DNA of 64,000 nt from an uncultured Planctomycetota bacterium (GTDB lineage: Bacteria > Planctomycetota > Planctomycetia > Gemmatales > Gemmataceae), in contig CAWIEZ010000001.1 of assembly GCA_963835245.1 (NCBI GenBank), positions 156,543-220,542 on the forward strand, written 5' to 3'. Shown in pieces: positions 1,184-64,000 of the stretch. How positions within the stretch are numbered: the stretch's first letter is position 1; each line of letters opens with the position of its first letter. The notes under the pieces were generated by a model. The model was not told the origin of the DNA, searched no databases, and was given only the letters and a program-made list of their open reading frames with translations. A program made the position numbers and the translations under genes.

Positions 1184-4100
1184 ATGCCGCACTGCCGACC
1201 GCTGCCGACGACGCTCCTTCCACTCGCCCTTGCTCTCTTCGTCCCCGCGTCGCCGCTCTCCGCCGCCGAGAATAGCGATTTTTTCGAGAACAAAGTGCGT
1301 CCCCTGCTGGCGCAGCACTGCTATCGCTGTCACTCTGGGCAAGCGAAGAAACTGCGCGGCGGTCTGCGCTTGGACAGCCGCGAGGCGATGCTGGCCGGCG
1401 GAGACAGCGGGCCGGCCCTCACGCCGCGACAGCCGGACAAAAGCCGGCTTATCGAAGCCGTCACTTACAAAAACGTCGAGTTGCAGATGCCGCCGCGCGG
1501 CAAATTGTCCGATGCCGACATCGCCGACCTGACAACCTGGGTCCAAATGGGCGCGCCGTGGCCGAAACAACCATCGTCCGGCGAGTCGAACATCAGTCGA
1601 GCCGCTTTCGATCTCAAGGAGCGCAAACGTACTCACTGGGCCTGGCAGCCGATCCGCTCGCAAACTCTTCCCAAGGTGCGCGATGCGAATTGGCCGCGCG
1701 ATTCGCTCGATCGCTTCATTCTCGCCAAGCTCGATGACAAGGGACTGTCACCGGCGAAACCTGCCGACAAGCGGACGCTTCTCCGCCGACTGTATTTCGA
1801 TCTGATCGGTCTGCCGCCGTCGCGGCCAGAGGTCGAGGCATTTCTGCGCGATACCTCGCCCGATGCGGTCGAGAAGGTCGTGGATCGTCTGTTGGCGTCG
1901 CCGCACTTCGGCGAACGCTGGGGCCGCCATTGGCTCGATCTCGTGCGCTACGCCGAGACGCGCGGCCACGAATTCGACTATGCCATCCCCAACGCCTATC
2001 AGTACCGCGATTACGTCATCCGGGCGCTGAACGCCGATGTTCCGTACAACCAATTCGTCCTCGAGCATCTCGCCGGCGACTTGCTGACAAACCCGCGCCG
2101 GCATCCGCAACAGGGGTTCAACGAATCGATCCTCGGCACCGGCTTTTGGTTCCTCGGCGAAGAAGTGCATTCGCCGGTGGACATTCGGCAAGATCAAGCC
2201 GACCGCTTCGACAACAAGGTCGATGTGCTGTCCAAGGCGTTTCTCGGCCTGACCGTCGCCTGCGCACGTTGCCACGATCACAAGTTCGATGCCATCTCCA
2301 CGAAGGATTATTACGCGCTGTTCGGCTTCCTCCAGAGCAGTCATTATCGACTGGCGCGTTTCGATTCGATGGAACACAATCGCCGCGTCGCCGCGGAACT
2401 GTGGCAACTGCGCGCGAAGAGCCGGGCGACGATTCAGAAAGCGTTGGCGGAAGCGCTGCGGCCGGGAGCGGAGCGACTGGCCGACTACCTATTGGCGGCG
2501 CGACGGCGATGTTGGCTCATGCGGATGCGCCGATGCGACGTAGCGGAGATCGCCCATGCGCACAAGCTCGATGCCGCCATTCTGGGCCAATGGATAAAGC
2601 ACCTGGCAACGGCGGCGCGCGATGAAAACGATCCGCTGCACGTCTGGGCGAAGCTCGCTGCCGATCCCGCCGCGAAGTTTAGCCACGATCCGAAGCGAGA
2701 CGCGGCTAAACGGACACAAATGATAATCGATTATGCCAACAGCAAGCCGGACGACTGGCTGACCGATGGGTTCGCTTTCGGTTCCGGTCCCGTGCGTCCG
2801 GGCGAATTGCACATCGAGGGCGATGCGGCCAAACCAGAACTGCACTTTCGCGAGTATGCTGCCGCCGAGAAAGATGCGGTTTGGGACGTGTTGAAGCCGG
2901 CTCGCGGCGCGGAGAACGATCCGGGAGTGTTGGGCAGCGTGATGCGCGCCGGCCGGACGATCCGCACGCCGACGTTCCCGCTGACCACCGGCAAGGTGTT
3001 CTATCTCGTCAAGGGCAGCGGCTTCGTCTACGCCGCCGTCGGTTCGCACGTCATGATTGCCGGTCCCTTGCACGGCGCAGCTGATCCGCACTGTCCATGC
3101 TGGCGAGCGTTTCCAGTGGATCGCACACGATCTCAGCGATTACAAGGGACAACGCATCCATCTGGAGTTCACGCCCATCGGCGACGCCGCTTTCGCCGTC
3201 GCGCAGGTGGTGCAGGGCGAACCGGCAGCGTTAGCTGCCGGGTTGGGCTTACCCGACAGCTTTGGCTTACCCGGCAGCTTTGGCTTACCCGGCAGCTTAC
3301 GCAGCCGGTTCGCCAACACCGGCTCTCTCGACACGCTAGCGCAGTCGTATCAACAGCTTTTCCTCGACACGCTCCGCGAACTGGCCGCCGATCACCTCAT
3401 CGGTACGGCCGATGCGGTCGATCGCGCCCGCCTGGTGAACTGGATGACGAAGCACGCCGCTCTTTTCGGTTGCTCTGCTCCTGCTAGTGAGGAAGCCCGC
3501 ACATTCCTTGTCGAGCAAGGCAAGATTGCCGACCGCATTCACAAAGAATCGCGCCTGTGCGTGGCGATGATCGATGGCAGTGGGGAAAATGAATATGTTT
3601 TTATCCGCGGATCGCACAAGGCGCACGGCGAAACCGTGCCGCGCCGTTTCTTGGAAGCGCTCGCCGGACCTGCTCCGCTGGCGGCTCTACGCGGCAGCGG
3701 TCGGCTGGAACTGGCTCGCCAAATGATCGATCCCGCCCTCGATCCGTTTCTGCCGCGCGTTGTCGTCAATCGCGTCTGGCATCACTTGTTCGGTCGCGGC
3801 ATCGTCGCTTCGACCGATAATTTCGGCGTCCTCGGCGAGCGGCCAACGCATCCCGAATTGCTCGATTACCTCGCCGATCGCTTCATCAAGGAAGGCTGGT
3901 CGATCAAGAGATTGATTCGCCATCTCGTATTGTCGAGCGCTTATCGCATGTCGAGCCAGCCGGACACGGCCGCTGATCGCACCGATCCCGGCAATCTGTT
4001 GCTGCACCGCATGCGCCTACGTCGTTTGCAGGGTGAAGCGATCCGCGATGCCATGCTATCTCTCTCCGGGCGTTTGGACAAACGCATGCACGGCCGTTCG

Positions 4101-4559
4101 GTGTTGGTGCATCTGACGGCGTTTCAGGAAGGGCGCGGCCGGCCCGCCAGCGGGCCGCTTGACGGCGACGGTCGCCGCAGTGTGTACTTGGCAGTGCGGC
4201 GCAATTTCCTGTCGCCGTTCCTGCTCGCCTTCGATACGCCGAGTCCCTTCTCGACCGTCGGCCGCCGCACTGTTTCCAATGTGCCGGCACAGTCGCTCAT
4301 TCTGCTCAACGATCCGTTCGTGCATCAGCAAGCGTCGCTCTGGGCGAAGCGCGTCCTCGCCGAGCCTGGCCCGACCCGCGAGCGAATCATTCGCATGTAT
4401 GAAAGCGCTTTCACCCGTCCACCGACAGAATCAGAGTTGGCGGCGTGCGTGGCTTTCCTCGCTCGCCAGCCCGCAACGCAAGCAAGGGACGATCCCGCTG
4501 TGTGGGCGGACCTCGCGCATGTGCTGTTCAACGTCAAGGAATTTATTTTCGTGAACTGA
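1184..4559 (+). CDS. PSCyt1/DUF1549/DUF1553 family protein (Planctomycete cytochrome-C-domain protein); apparent frameshift near 3075-3085
   Basis: N-terminus has signal + CxxCH-type motif (HCYRCHSGQAKKLRGGLRLDS), then DUF1549-like (RDYVIRALNADVPYNQF) and DUF1553-like (VNRVWHHLFGRGIVASTDNFG) regions. The 1184 frame turns to nonsense after ~3080 and the 3057 frame continues the family. Paired with the downstream DUF1501 gene, as is typical. Confidence 0.8.
3245..3298 (+). repeat. 18-bp x3 in-frame tandem repeat (GLPDSF/GLPGSF/GLPGS) inside the PSCyt gene
   Basis: ggcttacccgacagcttt / ggcttacccggcagcttt / ggcttacccggcagctta, read directly from the sequence. Confidence 0.85.
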
Positions 4560-7732: not shown

Positions 7733-8762
7733 TCATACGGTTTTGGTCCCGTTAAAGGCGCGTCCCACGCCGACGCCCAGCACGGCACGGCGCAGAAAGA
7801 CGTAAAAACCACCTGTGAAATCCATTATGAAGGGAAAGCCGATCGGCAGGCTGTCCAGACCCTGGTGATTGAGCGGCGAAGTTAAGTGTAGTTCCGCGTC
7901 CGGCACGATGGCGCAGGAGCCGATTCGGCTCGTCGCTGCGATAAAGCCAGTAACCCACGCCCACGCTCTTGAAGAAGAGTATTGCCTCGCGCGCATCGGT
8001 GGGCACGGCCACCGATAGGAACCCCTGCACGAAAAGACTTTTGCAATTCCATAGGTCGCCGAGCCACGGCTGGAAGATGACCGGATTGACCGACGATTGA
8101 CCCGGAAAATGCAAAGCCGGTCCCGTCGGAGCCGTCACCACCAGACCGCCCGCGAACACGTCGCCCGTAGCTCGATCATTAACGAAGGCGTACTTGAGAA
8201 GAACACTGACATCGCCGACGCGCGTTTCGTTCAAGCCAGGATCGCCGGTTAGCTGGAAGTACGGCAGACGCATACCGACCGAGGCGTTGCCTTGCAGAAA
8301 CGTCTTCTCGAAGCCAATCATTTCGCGGTACACATTGGCATAAGAAGCATTGGACGCGAACAACGATCGACCCACGCCGTTGAAATACTGGCCGGTTACA
8401 AAGACGCGATCCAGAGGGCGAGGACTTTCGTTGTCCGAGATTTTGAAGGAACTAAGGAACGCCACGGGAGCGATGGCTTCAACGCGGCTGCCGATGGCTT
8501 GGCGAAAGGCTTCGATTTCCAGCAGATCGCCGAACATGCCGGGAGGAGAGAGGAATAGCGGCGATGGTATCGTCTCCATCGCGCCGCCACGCAGGGGGTC
8601 GGCGAACGGTTGTTCCGGCACGGACGGCGCGGGCGGCAGCGAATTCCCCTCGGCCGGAACAGAGAGGGGAGGAAGGATACTTACCGGCTCCTGAGACGAG
8701 AGGAACGGCGACGGTAGGACGAAATAACTTCCGAGGCAGAGAAGCAAGCGCAGCCACTTCAT
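7733..8762 (-). CDS. putative outer-membrane/secreted beta-barrel-like protein; apparent frameshift near 7930-7996
   Basis: Start MKWLRLLLCLGSYFVLPS (signal). The body is in the 7752..8801 frame and the C-terminus continues in the 7733..7996 frame. No confident family assignment. Confidence 0.4.
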
Positions 8763-8950
8763 GTCGCCCCCGGTCCATCGCCGCTTCGGCGTCTTGGGCA
8801 AAATGGCGAAGCAAATCCAGCCGCGATTTCCCCGATGTCTGCCTGGCGATTTCGCGTTCAGCGGTCGGCGTCTATACCGTCTTCAAGGAATTGGCACAAG
8901 GGTAATTGTGATAGAATTATGATCGCATAGCCTGGAGTAAGCTGTTCCGG

Positions 8951-11027: not shown

Positions 11028-13935
11028 ATGATTCGCAAAACCTCGTGTGTCCTCTTCTCCTTTGTCATCTTATCCGCCGCTGCTCGCGCCGCCGATCCTT
11101 CGCCTGTCGAACAGGCACTGGCCCGCGAGATAATCGGCCCGCGTCAGGCGCTTCTCGACGTGCAAGAGCGCATCGCCTCGCGCATTCCGCGCATGCCGAA
11201 TGTGAAGAGCCGCGACGAGTGGGAAAAGTACGCTCAGCGGCTCCGCCGCGACATTCTCGATCGCATTGTCTTTCGCGGCGAGGCCGCCGCTTGGCGCGAT
11301 GCCAAATGTCAGGTGAAATGGTTCGATGCCATTGCCGGCGGTCCCGGTTATCGCATCCGCAAACTGCGCTACGAGGCACTTCCTGGATTGTGGATACCAG
11401 CTCTTCTGTACGAACCGGACAACCTATCGGGCAAAGTGCCGGTGGTGCTGGCCGTCAACGGCCACGAACGCCAAGGCAAGGCGGCGGACTACAAACAGAT
11501 CCGTTGCATCAATCTCGCCAAGCGCGGCATGCTCGTCCTCAATGTCGAATGGCTGGGCATGGGGCAGTTGAGCAAACCGAGCTTGCAGCACTACCGCATG
11601 AATCAACTCGACCTGTGCGGCACAAGCGGATTGGCGCCGTTCTACCTGGCGATCACGCGCGGTCTCGACGTACTGTTGTCGCTGCCAGGCGCCGATACCG
11701 AGCGCGTCGCCGTCAGCGGTCTGTCCGGCGGCGGTTGGCAAACGATATTCGGCAGTTCGCTCGATCTGCGCGTCAAGCTGGCGAATCCGGTCGCCGGTTA
11801 CTCCAGCTTCCGCGTCAAATACCGCGATCATTTCAAGGATCTCGGCGATTCCGAGCAGACGCCGTGCGATCTCGGCACCCTCGCCGATTACACCCATCTG
11901 ACCGCCCTGCGCGCGCCGCGGCCAACGCTGTTGACGTTCAATGCCAAGGACAATTGTTGTTTCGAGGCCGGCTATGCACTGCCGCCGTTGCTCGATGCCG
12001 CTCGGCCCATTTTCAAGCTGTACGGGAAGGAAACGGCGCTGCGCACCCACGTCAACGATGATCCCGGCACGCACAACTACGAGAAAGACAATCGGCAAGC
12101 GTTCTACCGCATGATCGGCGATTTCTTCTATGCCGGCGATAAAAAGTATCGTGCCGAGGAAATACCATCCGAAAAAGAGGTCAAAACTCCACAAGAACTA
12201 GAGGTCGATCTGCCGATGGGCAACGCCGACTTCAACGCGCTAGCCCTGGATTTGGCGAAGAAGCTGCCGCGCGTGCCGGCACTGCCGGCGCAGCGCTCGA
12301 CGGCGGAAAAATGGCAACAGGTACAACGCGGTAAACTCCGTTCTCTTGTCCGCGCGGAGAATTTCACCGTGAAGGCGACGCGCTGCGGCGACAGCGAGAA
12401 GGACGGCTTAAAGGCGACATTCTGGAAACTGCGTGTCGGCGAAAAGTGGACAGTGCCCGTCGTCGAACTGCGGCGTGGCGATCCGAAGAACACCGTGATT
12501 CTGCTCAACGACGCCGGCCGCCGTGCCGATGCCGTCAACGCCGAGCGCTTGCTGCGTATGGGGCTGCGCGTCTTGGCCGTCGATCTGTTCTATTTCGGCG
12601 AAGCGAAGCTGATGGGCGAGGATCTGCACAAGCAGAAACCGCGCGATTTTCTGCTGGCACTGCTGTTGGCCTGCGTCGGAGATCGACCGCTCGGCGTGCA
12701 GGCGAGCGAGCTATCCGCCGTGGTGCGCTGGTCGATGGCCGAGCATAAAAACGGCCCGCTCGCCATCGCCGCTGTGGGACCGCGCATGAGTCTGATTTCG
12801 CTGGTCGCGGCCGCCCTCGAAGAGAAGGCCATCGGTCTTCTGGAATTGCGCGGCGCGCTCGGCAGCCTCAAAGAGATTGTCGAGCAGAATCGTTCGGTGG
12901 ATCAGATGCCGGAGATGTTTTGTTTCGGTCTTCTCGAAGCGTTTGATGTCAAGCAGTTGACAGCGCTCGTGGCTCCGCGGCAGGTGTCGTTGGCGGGAGC
13001 CAGCGAACGGGCGCGGAAAGAGTTAGCCGATCTGCATACGTGGTACTCCGTATTTGGCCGCAGCTTCGATCCAATTCTCGGCCCCTTGCCGGCTGGAGTC
13101 AAGCTCGTCCGCGATCTGCCCTACATACCCGACGGCCACGAGCGCCACAAACTAGATCTGTATCTGCCGGAGAAGGCGCGCGGCCCGCTGCCGGTGATCG
13201 TCTTCGTCCACGGCGGCGGCTGGGCGGGCGGCAGCAAAGACGCGGGCCGTCAGTTTCTACTGTTTGTTTCCAAAGGTTACGCCGTCGCCGCCATCAATTA
13301 TCGGCTCAGTCAACATGCCGTCTTCCCCGCCCAGATTGAGGATTGCAAAACGGCCGTGCGCTGGCTGCGCGCAGGCGATAAAATATAACCTCGATGCCCG
13401 CCGCTTCGGCGCCATCGGCGAATCGGCGGGCGGCCATCTCGTCGCTCTGCTCGGCACGACCGGCCACGCCAAGGAACTGGAGGGCAAGGGCAACCTCGAT
13501 CAATCCAGCCGCGTGCAAGCGGTGGTGGACTGGTACGGTCCCACCGACCTGACGCGGATGGGATCGCGGTTCGCTCGCGCCGATTCTCCCACGGGCAAGT
13601 TGATCGGCGGTCCCGTCGCCGACAACAAGGACAAAGCCGCCAAGGCCAACCCCATCGCCTACATCACCAAGGACGCCGCTCCGTTTCTGATTCTGCACGG
13701 CACGCGCGACCCCCTCGTGCCGATGGAGCAAAGCGATTTGCTGCACGACGCGCTGAAAAAAACCGGCGTCGAGACAACCATCATGCGCATCGAGGGTGCC
13801 GGACACGGCGGCCCGCAATTTCATACGCCGGAGGTGCTGAAAAGCATTGAGGAATTTTTCGATCGGCATCTCAAGGCCGCCAATTCGTCTGAGGAAAAGA
13901 AGAAAGCCACCCGCGGGGGAGCGGGTGGCTCATAA
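11028..13935 (+). CDS. two-domain secreted alpha/beta-hydrolase (acetyl-xylan-esterase/dienelactone-hydrolase-like plus esterase/lipase domain); apparent frameshift near 13360-13375
   Basis: Signal peptide. GLSGGGWQT nucleophile elbow in the first domain. C-terminal domain has HGGGWAGG ... GESAGGHL ... HGTRDPLVP (catalytic Ser/His region). The 11028 frame ends at 13388 and continues in the 13264 frame. Confidence 0.75.
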
Positions 13936-14370
13936 AGGGGTTCGGGGACTTGCATTATAGGCATGAGGGGGATGGGAGAAGCGTCGCTCAGGCACTCGCT
14001 TTCGAGGGAACGCGGCGGCATGCGTCGAAGGGACGGGGGAGTCTCTCGACGACCTTCGCGTTCCCCCACACGGACGGGGTAGCCGTGGGCGAAGCGGTGG
14101 GGGAGACCGTTCGCCAACCGTGCGAGTACCCGACCGTCGCTTCCACTTATCGGTCGGGTCGCCTTTGGTAATTGCAAGCACCGTGCCGGAAAACCGTACA
14201 CGGATGCTGAAGGGGATTAAGTGACGTATGGACAAGCGTTTAAGATTTTCCGTTCTCCTCTGTGAATGCCACGGAGAATGATGGACATTTGTAAAAACGA
14301 GTCGGAGCGTGTAACTGCTACCATTCGGCCACAGGTCCATTGCCATTCTTGCCTAATGTAGGCTGTCTTG

Positions 14371-14451
14371 GTAGGGTGGGTCGAGCGCAGCGAGACCCAC
14401 CGGGGAGTGGCGGGTTCCCCGGTGGGTCTCGCTGCGCTCGACCCACCCTAC
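14371..14451. repeat. 36-bp perfect inverted repeat (9-nt loop) in a convergent intergenic region
   Basis: gtagggtgggtcgagcgcagcgagacccaccgggga / loop gtggcgggt / exact reverse complement. Lies at the left edge of the lower-GC island. Confidence 0.9.
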
Positions 14452-14490
14452 AACTGAAGGAGAAGGACCACATCAGCCGAAACAGCCGAA

Positions 14491-14967
14491 TCACGACACC
14501 GAGGGAAGCGGGAGAAAGATTATCGGCGTTCCCTCTTTGATGACCTTCAAGAAGACCGTATCGATCTTACCCTCGCCATATCCATAGAGAACCGGCCGTT
14601 CCTTTTTCAGTAGTTCAGGGAGCCTCTTCTTATCGAGAGGTTTACCATCGCTGCCGATCAGCTTGATTTCCTTGGCATCGTAGGTTTGATCTTCCCAACC
14701 TTCGACTGTCTCGTAAAAAGTGTGTTTTTCTTCAACTTCCTTACCATCTCGAATGATGCGCGTTGCCGTCAGCGAGACATAGCGACTTGTCCAGATTTTG
14801 AGAACGAGTTGACCTTTCTTATTCAGCCGTGCCATCGCCGCCGAAAGATTCCATGATTCTGATAAGACGGGAAACGGTGGAGGCGGTTTGGGAGCAGACG
14901 GCGTATCGGCGCACAGTCCCGTCGCCACGATGGCTCCAAGAATCGCCACGAATAGCATGCGTTTCAT
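14491..14967 (-). CDS. hypothetical secreted protein
   Basis: Start MKRMLFVAILGAIVATGLCADTPSAP (signal). ~158 aa. No domain hit. The 20-bp repeat array lies directly upstream. Confidence 0.5.
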   Translation of the reverse strand: MKRMLFVAILGAIVATGLCADTPSAPKPPPPFPVLSESWNLSAAMARLNKKGQLVLKIWTSRYVSLTATRIIRDGKEVEEKHTFYETVEGWEDQTYDAKEIKLIGSDGKPLDKKRLPELLKKERPVLYGYGEGKIDTVFLKVIKEGTPIIFLPLPSVS

Positions 14968-15016
14968 GTCAGATGCTCCTTTCAGGGGCTTTGCAATAGA
15001 ACTGCCAAAATGACAG

Positions 15017-15092: not shown

Positions 15093-15113
15093 CGCCATCG
15101 GGCAACAGTTTAG

Positions 15114-15440: not shown

Positions 15441-15463
15441 CCCAGCAACGGCTCAGTGGATGC

Positions 15464-15754: not shown

Positions 15755-15771
15755 ACTGCTCCTTAAAAAAA

Positions 15772-15796: not shown

Positions 15797-15826
15797 TAAG
15801 AGAGTGTCGTTGGCGATTTTTTGTGA

Positions 15827-26498: not shown

Positions 26499-27867
26499 GT
26501 GCCAGTCCTCTTCTCGTGTCCTTCGTGTTTTCCACTCCTCTGCGGGAGCGTGGCGCTCGCGGCGTGCCTCGTCGTCCCGTCCGCCAGTTCCGCCGCCCCG
26601 CCGCCCAATGTTGTCTTCATTCTCGCGGACGATCTCGGCTACGGGGATCTGGGCTGCTATGGGCAAAAGCTCATTCAAACGCCGAACCTGGATCGGTTGG
26701 CGGCAGGGGGAATGCGCTTCACGCAGGCTTACGCCGGCGCTACGGTGTGCGCGCCGTCGCGCTGTTCCCTGATGACGGGCCGGCACAACGGACACGCCTA
26801 CATCCGCGGCAATCGAGAGATCAAGCCGGAGGGTCAAGTGCCCATGCCGGCGAACACGTTCACCGTGGCCCACTTGATGAAACGAGCCGGCTACAGTACA
26901 GGCATCATCGGCAAATGGGGTCTCGGCCGCCCCGGCTCCGACAGCACGCCGGACAAAATGGGATTCGATTATTTCTTTGGCTACAACTGTCAACGACTAG
27001 CCCACGAGTATTACCCGGAGTACCTCTGGCGCAACCACGAAAAAGTCATGCTCAACGGCCGGAAATACTCGCACGACCTGATGGCCGATGAGGCACTGGA
27101 GTTTATACGGCGGCACCAGACGAAGCCATTCTTCCTTTATCTCGCCTTCACCATCCCGCACGCCAAGTTGCAAGTGCCGGACCTTGGACCATACGCCAAA
27201 GAGTCCTGGCCGGACAACCTAAAGAAATTGGCCGCCATGATTACGCGGATGGACCGCGACGTAGGCCGGCTGATGGCGCTGTTGAAAGAACTCCAGTTGG
27301 ACGGACGGACGCTCGTGTTTTTCGCCAGCGATAACGGCGCGGCTTATCAGGACAAGTTGTTCAATCATTCCGGGCCGCTGCGTGGGTTCAAGCGCGATAT
27401 GTACGAAGGCGGCATCCGCGCCGGTCCTCGCGTACTGGCCCGGCCACATCCAACGAGGGGCGGTGAACGAACAAGTTTGGGCGTTCTGGGATGTTCTGCC
27501 AACCTTGGCCGCACTGACGGGGCAACGACTGGACGCGGAGGGAGACGGCATTTCCATTCTGCCGGCGCTCTTGGAAAACAAAACGATCCCCCATCCGCCA
27601 CTGTACTGGGAGTTCCACGAGCGGGGATTCGACCAGGCCGCTCGCATCGGCGATTGGAAGGCCGTCCGCCGAGACGGGCCGAAAAGTCCCATCGAACTGT
27701 ACGATCTGAAAACGGATAGCGGCGAAAAACACGATGTTGCCGTCCAACACCCCGATGTGGTGAAACGATTCGCGGACTACTTCAAGACCGTGCGCACGGA
27801 TTCCGAACTGTGGCCCGTCCGCGAAGCCGTCAAAAAGCAATCTCCAGCCAAGGGGAGCAAGCCATGA
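26499..27867 (+). CDS. arylsulfatase-family sulfatase (secreted); apparent indel near 27417-27421
   Basis: GTG start with AAGGGAG RBS. Signal peptide. Sulfatase signature CAPSRCSLMTGR, DDLGYGDLGCYG. The frame switches from 26214.. to 27382.. within EGGIRA|PVLAYWPGH. Confidence 0.8.
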
Positions 27868-35697: not shown

Positions 35698-36807
35698 ATG
35701 AACGCTGATTTACGACGCCGTAGCGATGAGGTTTTGAGCCGTTTGACCCAGCTGCGGGACTCTCTTTGACATCTCCAGCAAACAATCCCTGCGCGAACAA
35801 CTCAACGCCCGCATGGGGCAGCCCAATTTCTGGGACAATCCCGAAAGGGCGCAGCAAATCATCGCGCAGTTGAAGCCGCTCAACGGTCTACTCAAGCCCT
35901 ACGAGGATCTGGAATCCGCCGCCGGCGACGTGCAAGCGCTGGTCGAGTTGGCCGACGAAGACTCCAGCCTGGAGTCCGAACTGGAAAGCGAACTGACGCC
36001 GTTCGAGAAGCGTCTGGACGACTTCGAGATGCGCGCCATGCTCGATGGACCGCAGGACGCCAGCAATGCCTATCTGCGCATCCAGGCCGGCACTGGCGGC
36101 ACCGAAGCCTGCGATTGGGCGCAGATGCTCATGCGCATGTACGCGCGCTGGGCCGAGAGTCACGGCTACGAAGTCGAAATCGTCGATGAATTGCCCAACG
36201 AGGAAGCCGGCATCCGCAACGCTACTTTGCACATCAGCGGCGATTATGCTTACGGCAACCTCCAGAGCGAGGCCGGCGTGCATCGCCTAGTGCGCATCAG
36301 TCCGTTCGACGCCAACGCGCGGCGGCAAACATCGTTCGCGGCGGTGGACGTGATCCCGGAGATCGAAGGGACAATCGAGATCGAAATACGATCCGATGAA
36401 CTGCGGCGCGACACCTTCCGCAGCGGCGGTCCCGGCGGTCAGCATCAGAATAAGACCGAGAGCGGCGTGCGCTACACGCACCTGCCGACCGGAATCGCCG
36501 CCGAGAGCCGCAGTCAACGCAGCCAACACAAAAACGATGAGATGGCCCTGAAAATGCTCAAGGCCAAGCTCTATCAGATCGAGGAGCAGAAGCGCGAGCC
36601 GAAGTCGAGAAGCTGTACGACGAAAAGGGCGAGGTGGCCTGGGGCTATCAGATCCGAAATTACGTCATGCAGCCGTACACGCTGGTCAAAGACGTTCGCA
36701 CCGAGGTGCAGACGCCGCAAGTGCAGAACGTCCTCGACGGCGAAATTGATGACTTCATTCAAGCGTATCTGCGTTTGAAGGCGGAGCGGCGGCACAAGAG
36801 AAAGTAA
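35698..36807 (+). CDS. prfB: peptide chain release factor 2, with programmed +1 frameshift plus one extra apparent 1-nt deletion near 36598
   Basis: ATG at 35698, 23 codons, then CTT TGA C at 35764-35770 and continuation in +1 (GGQ motif [24 protein letters not shown]). The C-terminus is only colinear (…[28 protein letters not shown]…) if one base is restored at ~36598. Confidence 0.9.
35764..35770 (+). promoter_or_regulatory. prfB programmed +1 frameshift site CUU UGA C
   Basis: Exact canonical heptanucleotide, with an in-frame UGA after 23 codons. Confidence 0.85.
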
Positions 36808-40450: not shown

Positions 40451-43400
40451 CCCGGACGACCTGCTTAGATCGAGACGCCGCAGCGACTCCTTGGCTTCGC
40501 GTGTCAATCGAGATTCCGGAGCGCCTTTCGCCAGTTCCTCCAGCAGCCGCCGCGCTTCGGAATTGCCGATGTCCTCCAACACGCCCACGGCGCGCAACGA
40601 ACGCAACCGTTCTGGCCGCGTTACCGGGCCGCGCAATGCGCTCCAACACTGCTTCCACACGGCGGCGCATTTCCAATGCCGGCTTGTTCGCTAACGTCTC
40701 TCGCAACGCTGGCTCGGCCAAGTCGCCGAGTTCGGCCAACTCTTCCTGTGCCTTTTCGCGCACGGTGAATGGTTCGCTCTCCAGGTCGGCCAACAATCGG
40801 CGTAATCGCCGCGGATCGGCTGCTTTGGCCGGATGCAAGCGCTCCTTCAACAGCGTCATTGTCTCCGCCGGCGCTGCCGCCAGCGTCCAGCGGACCGCGA
40901 AGGCTGTGCGGGCGTCGGCGGCGAGATCGTCCCAGGCGCGCCGCAGACTCTCGGCATCAAGCGCGGCCGGTCGATCCTCGCCTCGGACAGCGGCCACGTC
41001 CCAAATCAACAGGGTGCTATCGTACAAACCGGAAATGAGCCGGCGGCCGTCGGGCGAGAATGCCAGCGAAGTCGTCGAGGAGCCGAAGTCTTTAAAACGA
41101 TGCAGCTCTTTGCCTCTTCTGAGATCCCACAAGAGAATTTCTCCCTGCGGAGCGATCGCGGCCAGCAGACGGCCATCGGGAGAAACGGCGGCTTTGGCCG
41201 AGAGGTAAATGGAGATCGGCAAATCGAGCAACTCGCTCGCCGTCAACACTTCCCACAAGCGCAGCGTTCGGGTGAAACCGTTCGGCACCGCCGCCGACGG
41301 TGCCGAACCCGGCGCCGGCGGCGGTGCCGAAGTCGATGTGTCCGAGAGCAGTAAACGTCCATCGAGCGAGAAGGCCCGTGGGTTGGTTTCTCCTTTAAGG
41401 ATCGGAAAAGTCAGCAACCGTTCGCCCGTCTCCACATCTTCCAGGCGCATCGGTTCGCGTTTCACGCTGGGGAAGGCGAATACCTTGGCGTCCGGCGATA
41501 CCGCGATCTCCGGAAGGCTACTCTGAAAGCGCCAATTGGCGGCGAAACAGTTGCTTTCGCGCGATCGTATCCCAGCAGGTCATCCGCCAATCGTTCTCTC
41601 GCCCTCCTCCTGGCCCGTAGCCTCCCGGCGACAAATTGCGGAGGACGATCGCTTTGCGGCCGTCGCGGGATACGTGCATGCCCATGTAGGGATGCCCGTT
41701 CCGCCGCCTCCAATCGTTCGTTTCCAAGACGTGCAGTTCGCGGCCGGTGGCGGCGTCGGAGAGAAGCACCTTATCATCCCAGCACGAAATCAACGTCTTT
41801 CCATCGACCGAAAGGACGCACTCCAGCACTGTACTCGGTGAGCGACGCAGCAGCGCGAGCTGCCTGCCGGATGTCGCGTCCCAAATGCGGATCGTGCCAT
41901 CCAAACCGCCGCTAGTTGTGACGCGCTTGCCGTCAGGCGAAAACGTCGGCGTGCGGACCCAGTTGGTGGAATGGCCTTCGGCTTCGGGCTTCAATTCGCC
42001 TGTGGCCACGTCCCACAGGTGGATGACGCCACACATGCCCTCCGCGATGGCCAGCGTCTTGCTGTCCGGCGCGAACGACGCCGCGGTGGAGTTGAACGAC
42101 CGGCCCTCTCCCTTGAGGTGCCTGCGGTCTCGGCCACTGACCGTATCCCAGAAGTGGACCTCCCGCTTACTGACTGTGGCCAGCATTTTGCTGTCCGCTG
42201 TGAAGGCGACGGACTCGATACCGTCCTGATCGGCGGCGACGGTGTGCGCGGCCTTTCCGGTCATCAGATTCCACAATTGCACGAAAATCTTGTCGGCGGC
42301 GTCCCTAGATAGCGAGGCCAGCCAACAGCCATCGGGCGAGAAAACCAGGCTGTTATGGAAAGCGAAACGGCCCTCGGTTTTGAAGACCCATCGTTCTTTG
42401 CCGGTGGTCATATCCCAGACGTGGGCGGCCCCCGATTTATCGCCGGCAGCCAAAACATTTTTCCCCACCGCACAAGGGGCAGGGGTGTCGCGAAAAGGAT
42501 CGGACAGGTTCTTCTCGGTGAAGCGCCGCTTCCGGCCGGTCGCCATCTCGTGAAGGTTGATTGCTCCTTTGCTCTGCCAAACAACCAGCGGCTGTCCGTC
42601 CACCGTCCAACCCAGACAGGATATGTTCTCCAATTCCACCTCGGCTGTTTTTTGTCCACCGTACACGTCCCAAATTTGCACGAGGGATTTTTGCTCCATC
42701 CGAAAGCCGGATTTCTCCCAGACGACTTTACTCCCTTGAGTCGCTGCTGCCAGTAGCCGCTTGCTATCCGGCGAAAATGCGATGCGCCAAAACGACGTAG
42801 CGTGTAGACGAATAGTTTTTCTCAATTTGCCGGTAGCCGTATCGAATATCCACAGCCCGTCATCGGACGCGGCAGCGATCGTCTTGCCATCGGGAGCAAA
42901 CGCCAGTTCCCGCACATCTTGCGTATCGATGCGAAAACGCCGCGTGCCCAGCCGTGCCACGGCTCCCGGCGGCAGCGGCTCGCCGTCCCGATCGCGGCGC
43001 GGTTCGTCTTTCGCTTGCGCCGGCGGCGCGGCTGGTGAACCCACGGCAGGTATTTCCTCCCGCGGGGCACGGAGCATCGACAGACCGGCCGCCATACCAA
43101 CCGCCGCCACAATCACAGCCAGCCCGGCGATCTTCAGTTTCAACGCCGGCATCATCCCACCGGCCAGGGCGTCGATTGCGGCGGGAACCGTTCCGCTCAG
43201 ACCCCGAACGCCGTCGGCCAACAACTTCTCCGGCACTGCCGCAGGCGCCAGCAGCATCACGGCTCCCACGGACAGATCCAAACCTCGTTGGCTCAACCGC
43301 TCGCGTAGTCGTTCGCGGCCGCGCGTCAACCGGCCGCGCAGCGAACCGATGCTCCAGCCGAGTTGCCGCGCCGCCTCCTCGATCGTCCGCCCTTGCATCA

Positions 43401-49439: not shown

Positions 49440-52400
49440 TCACTTCCGCGACGACTCTTTTTCCGCAGCGACCTTCGCCTCATTCAGTTTCTTACGCCAC
49501 TTGGCCGCTTCATCCTTTTTGTCCATCGCCTCGTACATTTGAACCAGGCGTTCGAGCGCCTCGGTCAAGTGGACCTTGCTTTGCGGCGGAATTTTCGCCT
49601 CACGCTGCCTCATGCCCTGGTAACTGGACAGTAGCAGCGGTTCGGCGTCGGTGAATTTCTTCTGTCCCAGCAGAGCGCCGCCCAGCGAAGAGTGAGCATG
49701 GAAAGTCTGCCAATCGTCGGGCTGCTTCGTCTGGTGGATCTTGAGAGCGTCGCGCAACATCGGCTCGGCGTCGGCGTATTTGTGTTGCCGCAGCAGACAG
49801 GAAGCCATCCACATCATCTGACCGACCGTGCGCGGATCGGCGGAGCCGAATTGTCGCCGCGCTTGCTCCAGCGCAGCGCGGCAGAGCGGTTCGGCCTTGG
49901 CGAATTGTCCGGCGATGCCGTACGCCTCGATCAGATTGCCGCGGCAGGCGAGCGTGTGGGGATGATTAGCGCCGAGCTTCGCCGCCAGCTGCGGGAGAGT
50001 CTGCTCGAAGAGCAGGATAGCCTCGGTGGTGCGGCCGGCGGATTGATACGTGAGAGCCAGGTTGTTGCGGGAGCGGAGTGTATCGGCATGGTCGGCGCCC
50101 ATTTTGTCCTCCATCTGCTTAAGGGTCTGCTCAGACAGGTGGAGAGCCTCGGCAGTGCGGCCGGCGGATCGGTAAGCCTCGGCCAAGTCGTTGGCGGATC
50201 GGAGCGTATCGAGATGGTCGGCGCCGAGCTTGATCCCCTTCTGCTTGAAAGTCTGTTCGTGCAGACGGACGGCTTCGGCGGTGCGGCCGGCGGACAGGTA
50301 CGTATTGGCCAGATTAGCGCGGCAGGTGAGCGTAGTCGGATGGTTGGCGCCGAGTTTGGCCTCCATCTGCTGGAGGGTCTGATCGAAGAGGCGGAGAGCA
50401 TTGTCGGTGTGGCCGGCCGAGTGATACGCCCAGGCCAAGTTGTGACGGGAGAGGAGAGTATTGGGATGATCGCCGCCCAGCTGGACCTCCTTCTGCTTGA
50501 CGATCTGCTCGTAGAGGCGGAGCCTCGGCGGTGCGGCCGGCAGACAGGTACACCCCCGCCAGGTTGTGGCGTAATTGGAGCGTGTCGGCATGGTCGCCGC
50601 CGAGTTGGGCCTCCTTTTGCTTGACGATCTGCTCGTAGAGGCGGAGCGCCTCGTCGGTGCGGCCGGCGGATTGATACGCCAACGCCAAGCCGCCGCGGGA
50701 CCGGATTGTGTCAGGGTGGTCGGGTCCGAGCTTGGCCTCCCGCTGCTTGAGATTCTGCTCGTAGAGGCGGAGTGCCTCATCGGTGCGGCCGGCTGATTGA
50801 TAGGCCAGAGCCAAATTGCCGCGGGATTTGAGCGGGTCGGCATGGTCGGCACCGAGTTGGGCCTCGCGCAACGCCAACGCTCGCTTGTATTGCTCGATCC
50901 CCAAAGTGAACTCGCCCAGATACCAGTAGGTCGCGCCCAAAGTGTTACGAATCTCCGCTTCGACTAGCGGACGATCCTTGAAAGCATCGGCGATAGTCGG
51001 CGCTGCCGCGTCCACCGCCTTGCGCAAGGTCACGTCATTTCCCTGACCACCGCCCTGACCCTTCGGCCGGCCCGCCGACAGAACCTTGGTGCGGAAGAAA
51101 ATCAGCACCGCTTTGGTGTCCGCCTCCGATTGCCTGGTCTCTCGCTCGGCCTTGACCGCGCGATCGCGTTCCGTCGCCGTGGCCTTCCGCGCTTCCTCCG
51201 TCCGATCGCGCTGATCCGTGGCCTCCTTTTCCGCATGCACGGCCCGGTTCCGTTCGTCCAGCGCCCATACGGCCAGTGAGGTACTCACTATCGCAGCCAC
51301 GACGACAAGCAGCAGCAACGCCGCCACCATCGCCAAGCCGCGGCGATGCTTCCAGGCCAGCTTGCGCAGCCGATACCGCGCCGACGGCGGACCTGCCTCT
51401 ACCGGCTCGTCGGCCAGATAGCGTTCGATGTCGCGCGCCAAGCCGTTGGCCGTCTCATAGCGGCGGCTGCGGTCTTTCTCCAGCGCCTTCATGACGATCC
51501 AGTCTACTTCGCCGCGCAACGCCTTGACCAGCGCCGCCGGCTCCATATGACGCTGCGCCGAAACCGTCGCCAACGAATCCTTCGACCCACTCAAGCGCGT
51601 ACTCGGACGCGGCGGCTCTTCCTCGCGGATCAGACGCAACACCTCCACGATCGATGTTTCGTTGAGACGCTGCCGCGACAACGGCGTACTCCCCGTCAAC
51701 AGTTCGTACAGCAACACGCCCAGCGAATAAATGTCGCTGCGTGTGTCGATGTCTAGGGCATTGAACTCGGCTTGCTCCGGACTCATGTACTCCAACGTGC
51801 CCACAATACCGCCAAAGCCGGTGAACAGCGTGCGCTCCGTCAGCTTTCCGCCCGTCGCCTTGGCCACGCCGAAATCAATCACCTTGGGCACCGGCTTGCC
51901 GTCGTAAGCTGCGATGAGGACGTTGCTGGGCTTGATGTCGCGGTGGATGATGCCTTTCTGATGGGCGTGTTGAATCGCCTGGCAGACCGGCACGAACAAC
52001 TCTAGCCGTTGCCGCGGCGTCAATCGCTGTTCATCGCAATACTTGGTGATGGGGATGCCCTTGACCAACTCCATGACGAAATAGGGACGGCCGCTGGCGG
52101 TGGTGTCGGCCTCCAACACCTTGGCGATATTGGGATGATCCATCAGTGCCAACGCTTGCCGTTCTTGCTCGAAGCGGGCGATGATTTGCGCCGAATCCAT
52201 GCCGGCCTTGATGACCTTCAAGGCGACCATACGGCGCACGGGTTGTTGTTGTTCGGCCATGAAGACGACGCCCATGCCGCCTTCGCCGATCTGTTGCAGC
52301 AGTTTGTACGGCCCGATGCGGCTGCCCACCCCTTCCAGGGGAGCGGCGGACAAATCGCTGGCATCGAGCCACTGTCCGGGGGCGACGTTGCTGGTCAGCG

Positions 52401-52588
52401 CCCGGCGTGGTGTGTTTGTCCAGAAAGTTGTCGGCCTCATCGTAGGCATGCAACAACGCCTCGACCCGTTGGCGCAGTGGGGCATTGTCGCCGCAGGCTT
52501 CGTCGAGATAGGCCCGTCGTTCTTCCGGCGCGGTGATTTCGTGAGCGCGATCGAAGACGGACTTGGCGGTCGGCAAGAGGTTGTCCAC
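49440..52588 (-). CDS. Ser/Thr protein kinase with TM segment and C-terminal TPR array (copy 1); frameshifts near 50520 and 52400
   Basis: GTG at 52588 with AGGAG RBS. The kinase domain is near-identical to the downstream paralog. The TPR region at 50500-50560 is scrambled. Confidence 0.7.
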
Positions 52589-52617
52589 GATGACGACTCC
52601 TACGCAGGGAGAAAAAG

Positions 52618-55600: not shown

Positions 55601-55854
55601 ATGCGGCTGCCCACCCCTTCCAGGGGAGCGGCGGACAAATCGCTGGCATCGAGCCACTGTCCGGGCGAGACATCGCTGGTGGCGCCGGCGTCGGGCTTGT
55701 CCAGAAAACTGCCGGCTTGCTCGTGAGCGCGCAGCAACGCCTCGACGCGGCGGCGCAGTTCGACATCGCCGCCGCAGGCTTGCTCCAGGAAGGCGGCGCG
55801 CTCGGCGGCATCGCGGCGCGCCAGCGCTTCGGCGAACAAAGATTCCTCGGTCAT
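52618..55854 (-). CDS. Ser/Thr protein kinase with TM segment and ~12 TPR repeats (copy 2, intact)
   Basis: MTEESLFAEALARRDAAERAAFLEQACGGD…, Hanks motifs ([16 protein letters not shown]). Near-identical 42-aa TPR units (…[34 protein letters not shown]…). Confidence 0.85.
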   Translation of the reverse strand: MTEESLFAEALARRDAAERAAFLEQACGGDVELRRRVEALLRAHEQAGSFLDKPDAGATSDVSPGQWLDASDLSAAPLEGVGSRIGPYKLLQQIGEGGMGVVFMAEQQQPVRRMVALKIIKAGMDSAQVIARFEAERQALALMDHPNIAKVLDAGTTQTGRPYFVMELVKGIPITKYCDEQRLTPKQRLELFAPVCQAIQHAHQKGIIHRDIKPSNVLIAAYDGKPVPKVIDFGVAKATGQKLTERTLFTGFGGIVGTLEYMSPEQAEFNALDIDTRSDIYSLGVLLYELLTGSTPLSRQRIKDAAILEVLRLIREEEPPRPSTRLSESKDSLASVSAQRHLEPAGLLKAMRGEVDWMVMKALEKDRSRRYDTANGLAHDIQRYLADEPVEAGPPSARYRLRKLAWKHRRGLATASALLLLVVVGAVASTLLAVWAMKERARATMAETEAKDQRDEAVAARTATAEQRDKAVESEKDAKAVLAYFQDKVLSAGRPAGQEGGLGNKVMLRQAVDAAEPDIAKSFADRPLVEASIRNTLGLTYWYLGEAVLAIGQHERALALRETQLGADHPHTFISRNNLALAYYSAGRIAEAIRPHEQTLKQYEAKLGPDHPHTLTSRNNLANAYWSAGRTADAIRLHEQIIKQREAKLGTDHPDTLQSRNNLAAAYWSAGRSAEAIRLYEQALKQMESKLGPDHADTLTSRNNLAEVYRVAGRITDAIRLHEQTLKQKEAKLGPDHPDTFQSRNNLALAYWSAGRAADAIRLHEQTLKQKESKLGTDHPDTLTSRNNLALAYWSVGRTEEAIRLHEQNLKQREVKLGPDHPHTLLSRTGLAMAYWSAGRITEAIPLLEQTLKQSEAKLGTDHPDTLQVMANLAINYRDAGRFKDAIPLLEEALKRGRNRPGGSPAQLPWILGALAKTYERAGQFAKSESIHRDALEQARRQFGADDPRTAAPMAVLGLNLLHQHKFTDAEPLLRDCLKVRLAKQPDDWATFNAQSLLGAALVGQKKYADAEPLLLKGYDGMKQREAKIPPQGKIRLTEALERLVQLYEAMDKKEDAAKWRKQLEQARQAKTKNAAKK
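53230..54200. repeat. ~126-bp near-identical tandem repeats (TPR-coding) inside the kinase gene
   Basis: Recurrent …gagggtctgttcgtgcaggcggatggcgtcggcg…gtacgccagggccaggttgttgcggga… units. A similar block is in copy 1 (49900-50850). Confidence 0.8.
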
Positions 55855-56194
55855 GGCGGACCCTCGCTGTTGGAGACGGCAAAAATTGACAGCTACATCC
55901 ATCCATGCGAAAAGCGGGGCGGAAAAGCCTCACGGCGTTGACAATTTTTCGTCGCCGTCGTGGCCGCGCGTGAGTTCGACATGAAGCCAGACGCGCGTAG
56001 GTCCACCCCAGGCGAAGATAGGCTTCGTGAACGAGAGCTGTGGCGTCGAGCGTTGGTCCGGGTTTCTCGTGACCAGCGGCAATAAATGGTCGGCCGCGCG
56101 CGCATCGCCGGCTTCTAGGGCGTTCAAAAATTGGATCGCGTCGCTCATGTTCGTCGAGCATACCGCGATCCGCCGGCAATGCCAACTTTTTCCA

Positions 56195-58453: not shown

Positions 58454-58683
58454 GGTGATAACTCCCGGAAGAAAAAATGGCTTGACGGCGCGGCGACCAT
58501 TCATCCGTCGCCTACTCTATCCGGCGATACGGCGAATGCTAGAGAAAGAAGACGGATAATACCTTCGGGAGTTAGAGCCATTAACAGAATGAGCGAGTAG
58601 GCCGCCGATTACGACCGATGGGAGAATCTGTGGTACAAAAGGAGAAGGTTGAACCGCGAAAGACACGAAAAAAGGAGAAGACC

Positions 58684-58926
58684 ATGACGACAACAATGGC
58701 GGTGGAAGACATCAAGTTGACGCTGCCGGATCTCCTCGACAGTCTGACACCAGGCGATGAGATCATCTTGACCCGGAATCAGCAGTCCGTGGCGAAGTTA
58801 GTGAGTACGGTAGCGATCCCACAGCCGAAGCAGCGGCCCGATCCTGGTCTGTGCAAAGGGATGATTACCTACATCGCCCCGGACTTCGACGCTCCGCTCG
58901 AAGATATGAAGGAGTACATGGAGTGA
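58684..58926 (+). CDS. vapB: type II antitoxin (Phd/YefM- or VapB-like)
   Basis: 80 aa. Its stop overlaps the GTG start of the PIN gene (GTGA). Confidence 0.65.
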   Translation: MTTTMAVEDIKLTLPDLLDSLTPGDEIILTRNQQSVAKLVSTVAIPQPKQRPDPGLCKGMITYIAPDFDAPLEDMKEYME

Positions 58927-59318
58927 AACTCCTGCTCGATACGCACACACTCTTATGGCACGCCGACGGCGACCCGCGGATGAGTGCCACAGCTACCGCT
59001 TTACTCATCGACCCGGCGAATGCGTTGTTCTTGAGCATGGCGACCGTGTGGGAAATCGCCATCAAAGTGGGCCTGACGAAACTCACCCTGTCGGCCCCCT
59101 ATGTCGCCTTCATGACACGGGCAATTACAGGATACGGGCTGACGGTGTTGCCGATGACGTTGGGCGACTGTGCGGCTTACGAGCAGCTTCCGTTTCCCCA
59201 TCAGCAGCACCGCGATCCATTCGACCGGATGATTGTCATCCACGCCATTCGGAACGGACTTTCGGTGATTGGCGTTGACGCGGCGTTCGATCCCTACGGC
59301 ATCAGCCGCTTGTGGTGA
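58923..59318 (+). CDS. vapC: PIN-domain ribonuclease toxin
   Basis: LLLDTHTLLW… N-terminal Asp and the conserved acidic residues of PIN. 131 aa. Confidence 0.8.
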   Translation: MKLLLDTHTLLWHADGDPRMSATATALLIDPANALFLSMATVWEIAIKVGLTKLTLSAPYVAFMTRAITGYGLTVLPMTLGDCAAYEQLPFPHQQHRDPFDRMIVIHAIRNGLSVIGVDAAFDPYGISRLW

Positions 59319-60835: not shown

Positions 60836-63800
60836 ATGGCGACCGATCTGGGCCGCGTCAAGTCCACGCCGGCGAGCAAGTACGATGCCTTCGTCGCCTC
60901 GCAACTGGCCCAAGCCGAGAAGCGTATCCGTCTTCTCGACATGGCGGCCGGTCTACTCGGCTTCGCCGCTTTGAGCTTGGCCTATGTCGTGGTCATGGTT
61001 TTCTGCGATAGCAAACTAATGCTCGCGCCGCAGACGCGGCAGCGGTCGCTGTACTTCTTCCTGGCCGGCGGCGCCGTCTATTTGTTCTTCGTCATCCTCC
61101 GCCCCCTCTGGCTGCGCGTCAATCCGTACTATGCGGCGCGGCAGGTCGAGCAGCTGCTGCCGCACGCCAAGAACAGCATCGTCAACTGGGTCGATCTGCA
61201 CGAGCAGCCGCTGCCGCCGGCCATCCGCGGCGCACTGGGCCAGCGAGCCGCCAAGGATCTGTCGCACGTCGATCTCGATCGCGCTATCAGCGGACGCCGT
61301 GCCGCCTGGATGGGCGGTTTCGCCGGTCTGTTCGCCGTCGTCTTTATCGTCTCGTTCTTCTTGCTCGGCCCTTCGCCGTTTCTGTCGTTGCTCAAGCGGA
61401 CATTCAACCCGTTCGGCGGAGCCGGCATCTCCACGCGCACGCAGCTGACGCTTCTGAAGCCGCAAGGCGGCAACGCCACCGTCACGGTGGGACGGGGAAT
61501 CAATTTCGTCGTCGAGGTCAACGGCAAGGTGCCCGATCCGAAAGCGCCGGATGCGGTGAAAATGCTGTATCGCTATGAAGAGGGCGATCCCTGGCTCGAA
61601 CGTCTGCTCGTCCAGGAGCCGAGCCGCGAATGGACGACATCGCTGTCGGCCATCGAGGTCAAGAACGGATTTTGCTACCGCATCACCGGCGGCGATGCCG
61701 CGACAGAGGAATATCGCGTCGGCGTCCGCGCCGCTCCAGCCATCACCAATTTCCTGGCGACGTATCACTTCCGCCCCTACGTCGCCCGCGCCGATGAGAT
61801 CCGCCGCGAACGCGAAGTGAAGGAGCTGCGCGGCACGGAGGTTCTACTGCGTGTGCGCACCAATCGCATGCTCCGCGATGGCCGGATGGAGTTCGAGGGC
61901 AAGGACGGCGCGAAGATCGTGCGCGGCGACATGGACCCCAATGATCCGCATACCCTGCTCGTTCGTTTCGTCCTCAATGAAGACGGCAAATATCGCTTGC
62001 ACTTCACTTCGACCGAAAGCGAGGCGTATAGCGATCTCGTCTCCTATCGCGTAACGGTGATTGCCGATCGGCCGCCGGTGGTTGAGTTGACGAAGCCGGG
62101 CAAGGACATCCGTTTGCCGGCCGATGCACTGCTCACCCTAGAAGGCAAGGCCGAGGACGACATCGGCGTCAAGAGTTTGACGCTGCGTCTGCGCGTGGTT
62201 GCCGGCGACAAGCTGCGCGGACAGCCGTATCGCTCAGACAACCAATTGCGCTTGGCCGATGGCGGTTATCCGCGCAAGCTGGAATACAAGGACTTTATCG
62301 AACTGTCCCGCGTCAAGACGGAGGACGGTCAGGCATTTCCGCTGCGCGCCGGCATGGAGTTGGAATACTGGCTGGAAGCGAGCGACGCCTGCGATTATCC
62401 GCAGGCCAACGTCGCTGAGAGCAAGCATTATCGCGTGCTGCTAACCGAGCCGGAAAAGAATGAGCCGAAGCGCCAGCAAGAAAAGAAACAGAGCGAGAAA
62501 GACAAAAAACAGCACGAACAGAAGCAGGATCAGAAAAACCAGAAGGAGAATCGGGAACGTCAACAACAGCGACAAGAGCAGGAGGCACGGAACAAAGAGG
62601 AAGAGAACAAGAGCAAGGATGCCGACAAGGGTGCCGCCGGTGAACAGTCTAAGGGAAAAGAAGGTGAACAAGGAAATAACGCCGAAAACGAGGATAACAA
62701 AGAAGGACAGGGCGCGAACAACAAAGAGCAGGGCGAGAAAAATGAGTTGTCGAAAGAAGATCAAAAGACTGAGGAGCAGATCAAGAAAGCCCTAGAAAAG
62801 AAGGAAGCCGGCGAGGATGGCAAGGGCGAAGCCAAGCCCGATAAGGGCGATCGAGGCGAAGGGAAGGAAGGACAACAGGGCAAACCGGATGGCGACAAGT
62901 CCGGCGGTGAAGGCAAGGGAGCGGACCCAAAGGACGCCAAGGAGTCCGGCGAAGGCAAGGACAAATCTCAACCGCAAGCCGGCGGCGACCCCTCGCAGGG
63001 CGATGGCAAAGGCGATAACCAGCCCAGCCCGAAGCCCGGCGATAAGAGCGAGCCAAAAGGCAACGATCCGATGAACCAGACCGGCGCCGGCAAGACGAGC
63101 GAGGGCAAGGGCAAACCGGATGCGACGCCGCAGCCGAACAAGGGCGCCGGGCAGGATCGAGATTCCGCCAAGGGCGAAAGCAAACCTACCGACGGCAAAG
63201 GACAGCAAAGCCAGCGCGAGACGGCCGCCGACCCGAAGGGCAAGGGCGGCCAACCGTGGCGAGGGCGAGCGCAAGGACGACGGCAAAGCGGAGGCTAAGC
63301 AGGGCGATTCGCCGCCCAAGGGCGCGCCATCCACCGAGAACGGCGCTAAACCGCCCTCCGGCAAAAAGGAAAACGATTCCACGGGTAAGAGCGAGGGCAA
63401 GCCGGACGCCGTCGCTCAAGCGCGCAACGCCACGGCGAAGGAGATTGAGGATCTGGCCAAAGAATTGCAGAGCAAAGATGCGCCGGCAGCGCGAAGAGGC
63501 GAAGCGCCGGCTGCAACGCATCGAGAAGGAAGCCGCCGATCCCGATGCCCGCGACAAAGCCGGCGAAGCGCTGGAAAAAGCAGGCCAGCCGGACGGTCCC
63601 GCCGACAAGGGATCGCCGAAATCAGGCAACGGCTCCGATGGCAAGCCGGACGGCGAACGCAAGGACGGTGAAGACGGCGACAAGAGCAAAGGTTCCGGGC
63701 AAGAGAATGGCCAGGGCGGCAAGGACAAGCAGGGTTCGTCATCCGGCGATAAACCAAGAGAAAGTAAAAGCTCCGAGGGCGGCAACACGCCGGGAGACGG

Positions 63801-64000
63801 CGGCGCGCGCGGCGCAGCGGCGATGGCGACAGCAATCCGGGCGATGCCTCTCCTTCCAAAAGCAAACCTGCCAAGCCGCGCGATCATCGCGCCGCCCAGA
63901 TGCAACTGGAAGACTTCGCCAAGAAAGTGAACAAGGACATCCTCAAGGACGCCGGCGTCTCCGAAGAGGCGTGGAAGAGATATCTTGAGTCCAAGCGCAA
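60836..64000 (+). CDS. large membrane-anchored protein with extremely K/E/G/D/Q-rich low-complexity C-terminal region (partial, runs off the window; frame changes after ~63240)
   Basis: N-terminal TM helices (LLGFAALSLAYVVVMVF; YFFLAGGAVYLFFVIL; GGFAGLFAVVFIVSFFLLG) and a globular middle region. Charged repeats start ~62450 and continue in shifted frames (63120.., 63256.., 63545..). Confidence 0.55.

Follow-up and report, generated by a model that had tools for sequence, protein, structure and literature searches.

The 64,000-nt stretch analyzed here (the window) lies at positions 156,543 to 220,542 of the forward strand of contig CAWIEZ010000001.1, assembly GCA_963835245.1, from an uncultured Planctomycetota bacterium of the Gemmataceae. 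It has a GC content of ~60% and a gene content that is typical of planctomycetes: PSCyt/PSD1 genes with DUF1501, a sulfatase, ECF-sigma/WD40 and Ser/Thr kinase-tetratricopeptide repeat (TPR) genes. Eleven of its genes, among them prfB, are interrupted by a total of ~28 reading-frame breaks (Table 1). Reading frames were called ab initio as a six-frame Viterbi path, using a codon-usage model trained on the long open reading frames (ORFs) of the window, and were checked against homologues by means of Pfam profiles, translated related loci, comparison of stitched products with intact homologues, and DNA alignment with orthologues. The path shows same-strand, gapless frame switches for nearly all of the breaks that the original prediction, made from the letters of the window, had seen, almost exactly at their coordinates, and the coding signal carries on in the new frame past every break. 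The claim of pervasive frame breaks is thus borne out by Viterbi path, homologues and profiles, with more breaks than had been listed; the ~15 genes that were said to be affected are an overcount. Homologues or protein-family profiles back the breaks in 10 of the 11 genes, and in the DUF4175-like gene they are seen in the reading frames alone.

Table 1. Interrupted genes of the window, with the programmed frameshift site of prfB and the IS3-family element (positions are those of the window).
Feature	Coordinates	Break or element	Strand	Basis
PSCyt1-PSCyt2-PSD1 gene	1184-4559	break 3079..3102, net +1	+	Pfam, relative L008
Outer membrane protein (OMP)-like gene	7733-8801	break 7912..7914, net +1	-	metagenomic homologues, including L085
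Esterase gene	11028-13935	break 13373..13384, net +1	+	BD-FAE profile, relative L035
Sulfatase gene	ORFs 26214-27719 and 27382-27867	break 27421..27422, net +1	+	Pfam, L060
Prenyltransferase-repeat gene	27864-30018	1-nt deletions after 28884 and after 28994	+	L083 DNA alignment
prfB	35698-36807	1-nt deletion 36595..36596	+	alignment with relatives
GH123_N_2/DUF6067-type (GH123-like) gene	36985-40363	12 indels	+	DNA alignment with L081, L082
ECF-sigma/WD40 gene	40445-43878	break 40626..40636, net +1, near C-terminus	-	homologues
ECF-sigma/WD40 gene	40445-43878	break 41525..41539, net +1, cuts called product to 786 aa	-	homologues
DcuC transporter gene	45161-46540	1-nt deletion 45937, 1-nt insertion 45624	-	L084 DNA alignment
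Kinase-TPR gene 1	49443-~52600	break 50512..50522, net +1, 2 nt shorter than paralogue	-	tblastn and DNA alignment
Kinase-TPR gene 1	49443-~52600	break 52399..52415, net +1, 4 nt longer than paralogue, near N-terminus	-	tblastn and DNA alignment
DUF4175-like gene	start 60836	switches ~63257 (+1), ~63478 (+1), ~63800 (-1); 63257..63815	+	Viterbi path and three-frame translation
prfB programmed +1 frameshift site, CTT TGA C	35764..35770	natural	+	conserved in 8 of 8 aligned relatives
IS3-family element	23768-25017	37-nt inverted repeats 23768-23804 and 24981-25017		
IS3 orfA (HTH_Tnp_1)	23832-24128			
IS3 orfB (rve)	24125-25102			

The GH123-like gene has its coding frame cycle 1>2>3 ten times along its length. 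The original prediction had recognized breaks in this large secreted protein but had counted about 7, where alignment yields 12 indels. Two orthologues (L081 and L082) of ~80% nucleotide identity allow each to be placed: eleven are single-base insertions, at 37361, 37727, 37877, 38141, 38188, 38793, 39114, 39183, 39363, 40020 and 40104, and the lone deletion, of 1 nt, follows 39131. When the eleven bases are taken out and one is put in, a frame of 1122 codons opens without a stop codon, and the stitched product shows 78% identity over 100% of the length of 1118-aa homologues. Of 171 columns invariant in 111 homologues, the corrected protein violates none, and of 367 columns conserved to at least 95% it departs at 5, the latter number being the median of intact homologues. 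The ratio of nonsynonymous to synonymous substitution (dN/dS) of the corrected gene against its orthologues is 0.13-0.14, and that between the two intact orthologues is 0.11. A search for hidden compensated frameshifts in two intact genes, the neighbouring GH57 gene and the alanine dehydrogenase gene, found none, the mismatch clusters there being variable loops. As a separate observation, the L081 orthologue carries at ~11805-11835 a 30-nt in-frame insertion, missing from the window and from L082, that is a near-perfect palindrome, CCCCACCCTACCCTCCCCCAAATTGGGGGAGGGAAGGGTGGGG, and that may be a small hairpin element within coding sequence.

The same treatment of the transporter and prenyltransferase-like genes gives the same result. 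Stitching of DcuC across the ~104 codons that are out of frame between its deletion and its insertion yields a product 77% identical to the intact 459-aa protein P0121, and for the prenyltransferase-repeat protein stitching gives 83% identity to the intact 695-aa P0241; like the GH123-like product, both match hundreds of intact full-length homologues. Corrected DcuC deviates at 0 of 44 invariant columns and at 2 of 109 columns of at least 95% conservation (median of intact homologues 2), and the corrected prenyltransferase-like protein at 0 of 85 and 3 of 207 (median 3). None of the three corrected frames contains a stop codon. The GH123-like, DcuC and prenyltransferase-like genes are therefore without sign of relaxed constraint, and the suggestion that the permease might be a real pseudogene is not supported for DcuC.

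prfB is an essential gene, and its interruption in addition to the programmed shift, as originally predicted, is confirmed by alignment, in which the window alone is gapped by one base against all 8 aligned relatives. The RF2 proteins of relatives change frame at 36595-36598 of the window, and the 69 residues read in the shifted frame match the closest relatives among the matches listed (L001 and L002) at 94-96% identity. The set of relatives consists of 80 related loci fetched with prfB, among the matches listed, and 78 of these 80 have an uninterrupted prfB frame. Of the two others, L063 is merely ended by a contig edge. The sole other internally broken prfB among the 80 listed relatives is at 10001-10992 of L056, from the Nanopore Microflora Danica metagenome-assembled genome (MAG) MFD01213.bin.2.21.

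In most of the remaining genes the breaks divide domains, or homologues that are themselves continuous. Pfam places PSCyt1 and PSCyt2 on one ORF and PSD1 on the next, overlapping one, and a 1100-aa relative from L008 follows the gene, frame 2 carrying its aa 65-616 and frame 3 its aa 623-1100. The first sulfatase ORF likewise carries the Sulfatase domain and the second one SGSH_C, with aa 33-305 of a sulfatase from L060 in one frame and aa 306-475 in the next. The BD-FAE profile of the esterase is split between positions 1-79 on ORF 11028-13388 and positions 79-215 on ORF 13264-13935, and relative L035 is colinear over both frames. For the OMP-like gene, aa 1-292 of the intact 350-aa homologue L085 end at 7914 and aa 294-350 start in the other frame at 7912, so that the break predicted at ~7950 stands but its position does not. 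Homologues of the ECF-sigma/WD40 protein run in one frame up to ~aa 768-777 (ending at 41536-41539) and in the next from 41525, and full-length homologues of 1122-1152 aa change frame again at the break near the C-terminus; the ORF thus ends at 786 of ~1130 residues, with the rest in two further frames. The DUF4175-like membrane protein has a long K/E/G/D-rich low-complexity tail, which gives 62000-64000 an extreme AT skew of 0.52. One predicted break, at ~20620, is not upheld: a minus-strand ORF (20125-~20560) and a plus-strand ORF (20614/20644-21063) account for the region, the ab initio frames point rather to a pair of ordinary divergent genes, and neither a Pfam or NCBIfam family nor a viral-contig relative was found there.

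The lesions themselves are strikingly uniform. All 17 events that were resolved to the base against orthologues are of exactly 1 nt, 12 being insertions and 5 deletions, and over the whole window net +1 shifts number 22 and net -1 shifts 6. Eight of the 12 inserted bases match neither adjacent base, and no insertion falls in a run of three or more; among the five deletions, two have shortened a run of GGG or GGGG. Whether the breaks lie in homopolymers, a question raised with the original prediction, is answered in the negative: events in base runs of at least 3 (2 of 17) are at chance level, ~12% of the window being in such runs, and none of the 148 runs of at least 5 is touched by a base-resolved event. 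Three deletions (28884, 36595 and 45937) share a GCG^CG-like context, a sample too small for interpretation. The events are strongly clustered, with 14 within the 4.6 kb of 36985-41540 against 2.1 expected (Poisson P = 5e-8) and an index of dispersion of 4.0 in 4-kb bins. Such clustering fits a locally poor consensus and is no argument against error.

Seven proteins of the window are present verbatim in a large protein collection, as NCBI-derived entries that all lie on one contig of 1,761,349 bp, and at 90% identity five of them cluster with no other protein; the window is thus part of a very contiguous public assembly without close relatives on record. Among the matches listed for the prfB query, the nearest genomes are Gemmataceae-like MAGs of at most 95% amino-acid and at most 86% nucleotide identity, and these share no synteny with the window beyond prfB. 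A contig of 1.76 Mb fits a long-read assembly.

Taken together, these evolutionary and statistical arguments make it highly probable (roughly 0.9) that the frame breaks arose technically, as errors in the consensus deposited for a contig that was probably assembled from long reads, and are not mutations of the organism, because they are indels only, of ~1 nt, mostly insertions, and without relaxed selection. The preference for sequencing or assembly error in the original prediction is upheld by the 1-nt lesions, the conserved corrected genes and the identity of the prfB tail. Long-read consensus indels that fragment genes are well documented (PMC9262707; PMC12007338). On this explanation single bases would have been inserted, and more rarely lost, at sequence positions that are essentially random; errors would have been far denser locally in 36985-41540 and again beyond 63250, regions that may have had poor read support or polishing; and each error would shift the frame and lead gene callers to emit truncated or split proteins. 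A platform error of the homopolymer type (454, Ion Torrent, Nanopore R9) is rejected by the run counts given above. The profile resembles that of PacBio continuous long reads (CLR), or of a low-coverage long-read consensus, more than those platforms, because it shows neither a preference for homopolymers nor a visible surplus of substitutions; PacBio CLR errors are reported to comprise ~15x more indels than substitutions and to be random, without homopolymer bias (PMC4719071). Several points weigh against the error explanation or its details. The insertion excess is atypical of Nanopore consensus, and the assignment to a platform is accordingly weak. The net shifts in five genes are located to intervals only, and the breaks of the DUF4175-like gene, in a K/E/G-rich low-complexity tail, are approximate in placement and come from reading frames only. 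Kinase 1 was compared with its paralogue only, and its events differ in size (+4 and -2 nt). Finally, an exact-pattern scan of metagenome contigs over the insertion site 37877 found no match with or without the extra base.

If the organism instead carried the frameshifts and were undergoing genuine, very recent and extensive pseudogenization, with loss of many genes including prfB, the breaks would stand in the public record as they do, down to the truncated ECF-sigma/WD40 product in the protein library; several of the families that are hit (kinase, sulfatase, PSCyt) are rich in paralogues, where loss might be tolerable, and one genuine mobile-element disruption, an IS3 element inside a transposase copy, is present in the window. 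Such decay is nevertheless very unlikely. Constraint is not relaxed in the three genes tested, and 12 neutral indels in one gene should have been accompanied by dozens of substitutions and some stops, where not one of the 171 invariant columns of the GH123-like protein is changed. Nor is it like decay to find 12 independent hits in one 3.4-kb gene beside clean genes, or an essential gene struck while its shifted tail stays conserved. The resolved indels, all of 1 nt and biased to insertion, are also the opposite of those of natural bacterial pseudogenes, which show an insertion:deletion ratio of 0.76-0.94, a mean deletion of ~19 nt and a broad size range (PMC6054270). Restoration of the frames in the course of expression, whether by programmed ribosomal frameshifting or by excision of bases from the RNA, gains some plausibility from two real recoding sites in the window, that of prfB and the presumed IS3 slippery site; yet the remaining sites have no slippery or stop-codon motif in common, the previous frame remains open over 60-780 nt past each break, insertions and deletions both occur, and the indels are missing from every orthologue examined, so that nothing is conserved. 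We know of no base-deleting RNA editing described in bacteria, and biological recoding is regarded as extremely unlikely here. Hardly more credible is the broader proposition that the indels are real and are tolerated or corrected, whether through a recent localized burst of insertion-biased single-base mutation, as from a defective polymerase or repair system, or through recoding that restores the frame.

The case that most plausibly departs from the rest is kinase 1. Two Ser/Thr kinase-TPR paralogues lie in tandem at 49443-52600 and 52621-55902, and their kinase halves are 78% identical in nucleotides and 80% in amino acids; internal repeats of TPR units are present in both, and the downstream copy, kinase 1, alone is broken. 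A mixture, in which most of the breaks are errors and one or a few, most plausibly in this duplicated gene, are real inactivations, is unlikely, though with points in its favour: the intact tandem paralogue could make kinase 1 redundant, its events amount to +4 and -2 nt against the paralogue rather than 1 nt, and the ATG of the paralogue aligns to a 2-nt gap in kinase 1. However, both events share the net +1 shift of the error class, and each could consist of a 1-nt insertion superimposed on a natural divergence of codon size between the paralogues. In its kinase domain, kinase 1 also scores on a par with the paralogue (Pfam E values of 4e-43 and 4e-44), and dN/dS between the copies is 0.19. 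A translated relative, L004, aligns across two frames at 50512..50522 as well.

Some frame switches of the window are of natural origin and were not counted as errors. The Viterbi switches at 23847 and 24114 belong to the IS3 element and its orfA/orfB overlap; that at 58924 belongs to a DUF2281 antitoxin/PIN toxin pair (58618-59318), whose overlapping ORFs produce a natural frame change; those at 9389, 16112 and 56157/56264 are ordinary gene boundaries; and what look like in-frame stops at 57563-8 and 59316-8 lie between separate genes. The orfA/orfB overlap region of the IS3 element (~24089-24128) includes an A-run at ~24089-24095, which, by analogy with other IS3 elements, is presumably a -1 slippery site, and orfB extends ~85 nt beyond the right inverted repeat. 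The element directly follows a truncated SWIM+DDE_Tnp_1 transposase copy (23086-23766) that corresponds to aa 15-242 of an intact copy at 16105-17379, and the truncated copy represents the genuine disruption of a gene by a mobile element. These genes lie in a region, 14000-26000, of lower GC (0.54-0.58) with transposases, a Sel1-repeat kinase (17876-20128) and numerous short ORFs without a family. The region has the look of a mobile island; its ORF 15464-15754 matches the Acb2/Tad1-hairpin family weakly (E ~1e-3), under the Pfam cutoff. The mostly intact genes of this island had been taken to argue slightly against uniform random error, an argument of little weight, because ~3 events would be expected in its 12 kb outside the cluster and short hypothetical ORFs offer low power for detecting breaks.

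The finding is consequently a flag on the quality of an assembly and not a biological feature, and the genes are almost certainly intact in the organism. About one quarter of the larger genes of the window appear in the public record in split or truncated form. At least one such product, the 786-aa ECF-sigma/WD40 protein (41521-43878, minus strand), is identical at 100% to P0396, a cluster representative in a library of 1.84 billion proteins; the frameshift errors have therefore already spread into protein databases. A broken marker such as prfB would lower estimates of completeness, and work on gene content, pseudogene counts or protein families in this genome should be preceded by frameshift-aware correction or re-polishing. 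Were the indels real, they would represent a very unusual localized and insertion-biased frameshift mutation that strikes an essential gene.

Known systems in which reading frames are broken provide a measure of these events. The programmed +1 site of prfB, which serves RF2 autoregulation, and the orfAB frameshift of the IS3 element are real frame changes in the window, but the former is marked by a motif and conserved and the latter has a recognizable motif, unlike the other 28 breaks, which have neither motif nor conservation. Natural pseudogene decay, as in leaf-nodule Burkholderia and Mycobacterium leprae, shares with the window many frameshifted genes and some mobile-element activity nearby; it is characterized by an excess of deletions, wide indel sizes, accumulating substitutions and stops, and intact essential genes (PMC6054270), whereas the indels of the window are of 1 nt and biased to insertion, with no extra substitutions and with prfB hit. 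The gene-fragmenting indels of long-read assemblies (PacBio CLR and Nanopore), for which IDEEL-type length tests and the programs proovframe and Kastor exist, produce the same single-base splits of conserved genes, become worse with poor coverage or polishing, and yield truncated products that reach protein databases, as here. Within this class the classic Nanopore signature is one of homopolymer deletions, whereas the events of the window avoid homopolymers and are mostly insertions, and thus stand nearer to PacBio CLR (PMC4719071).

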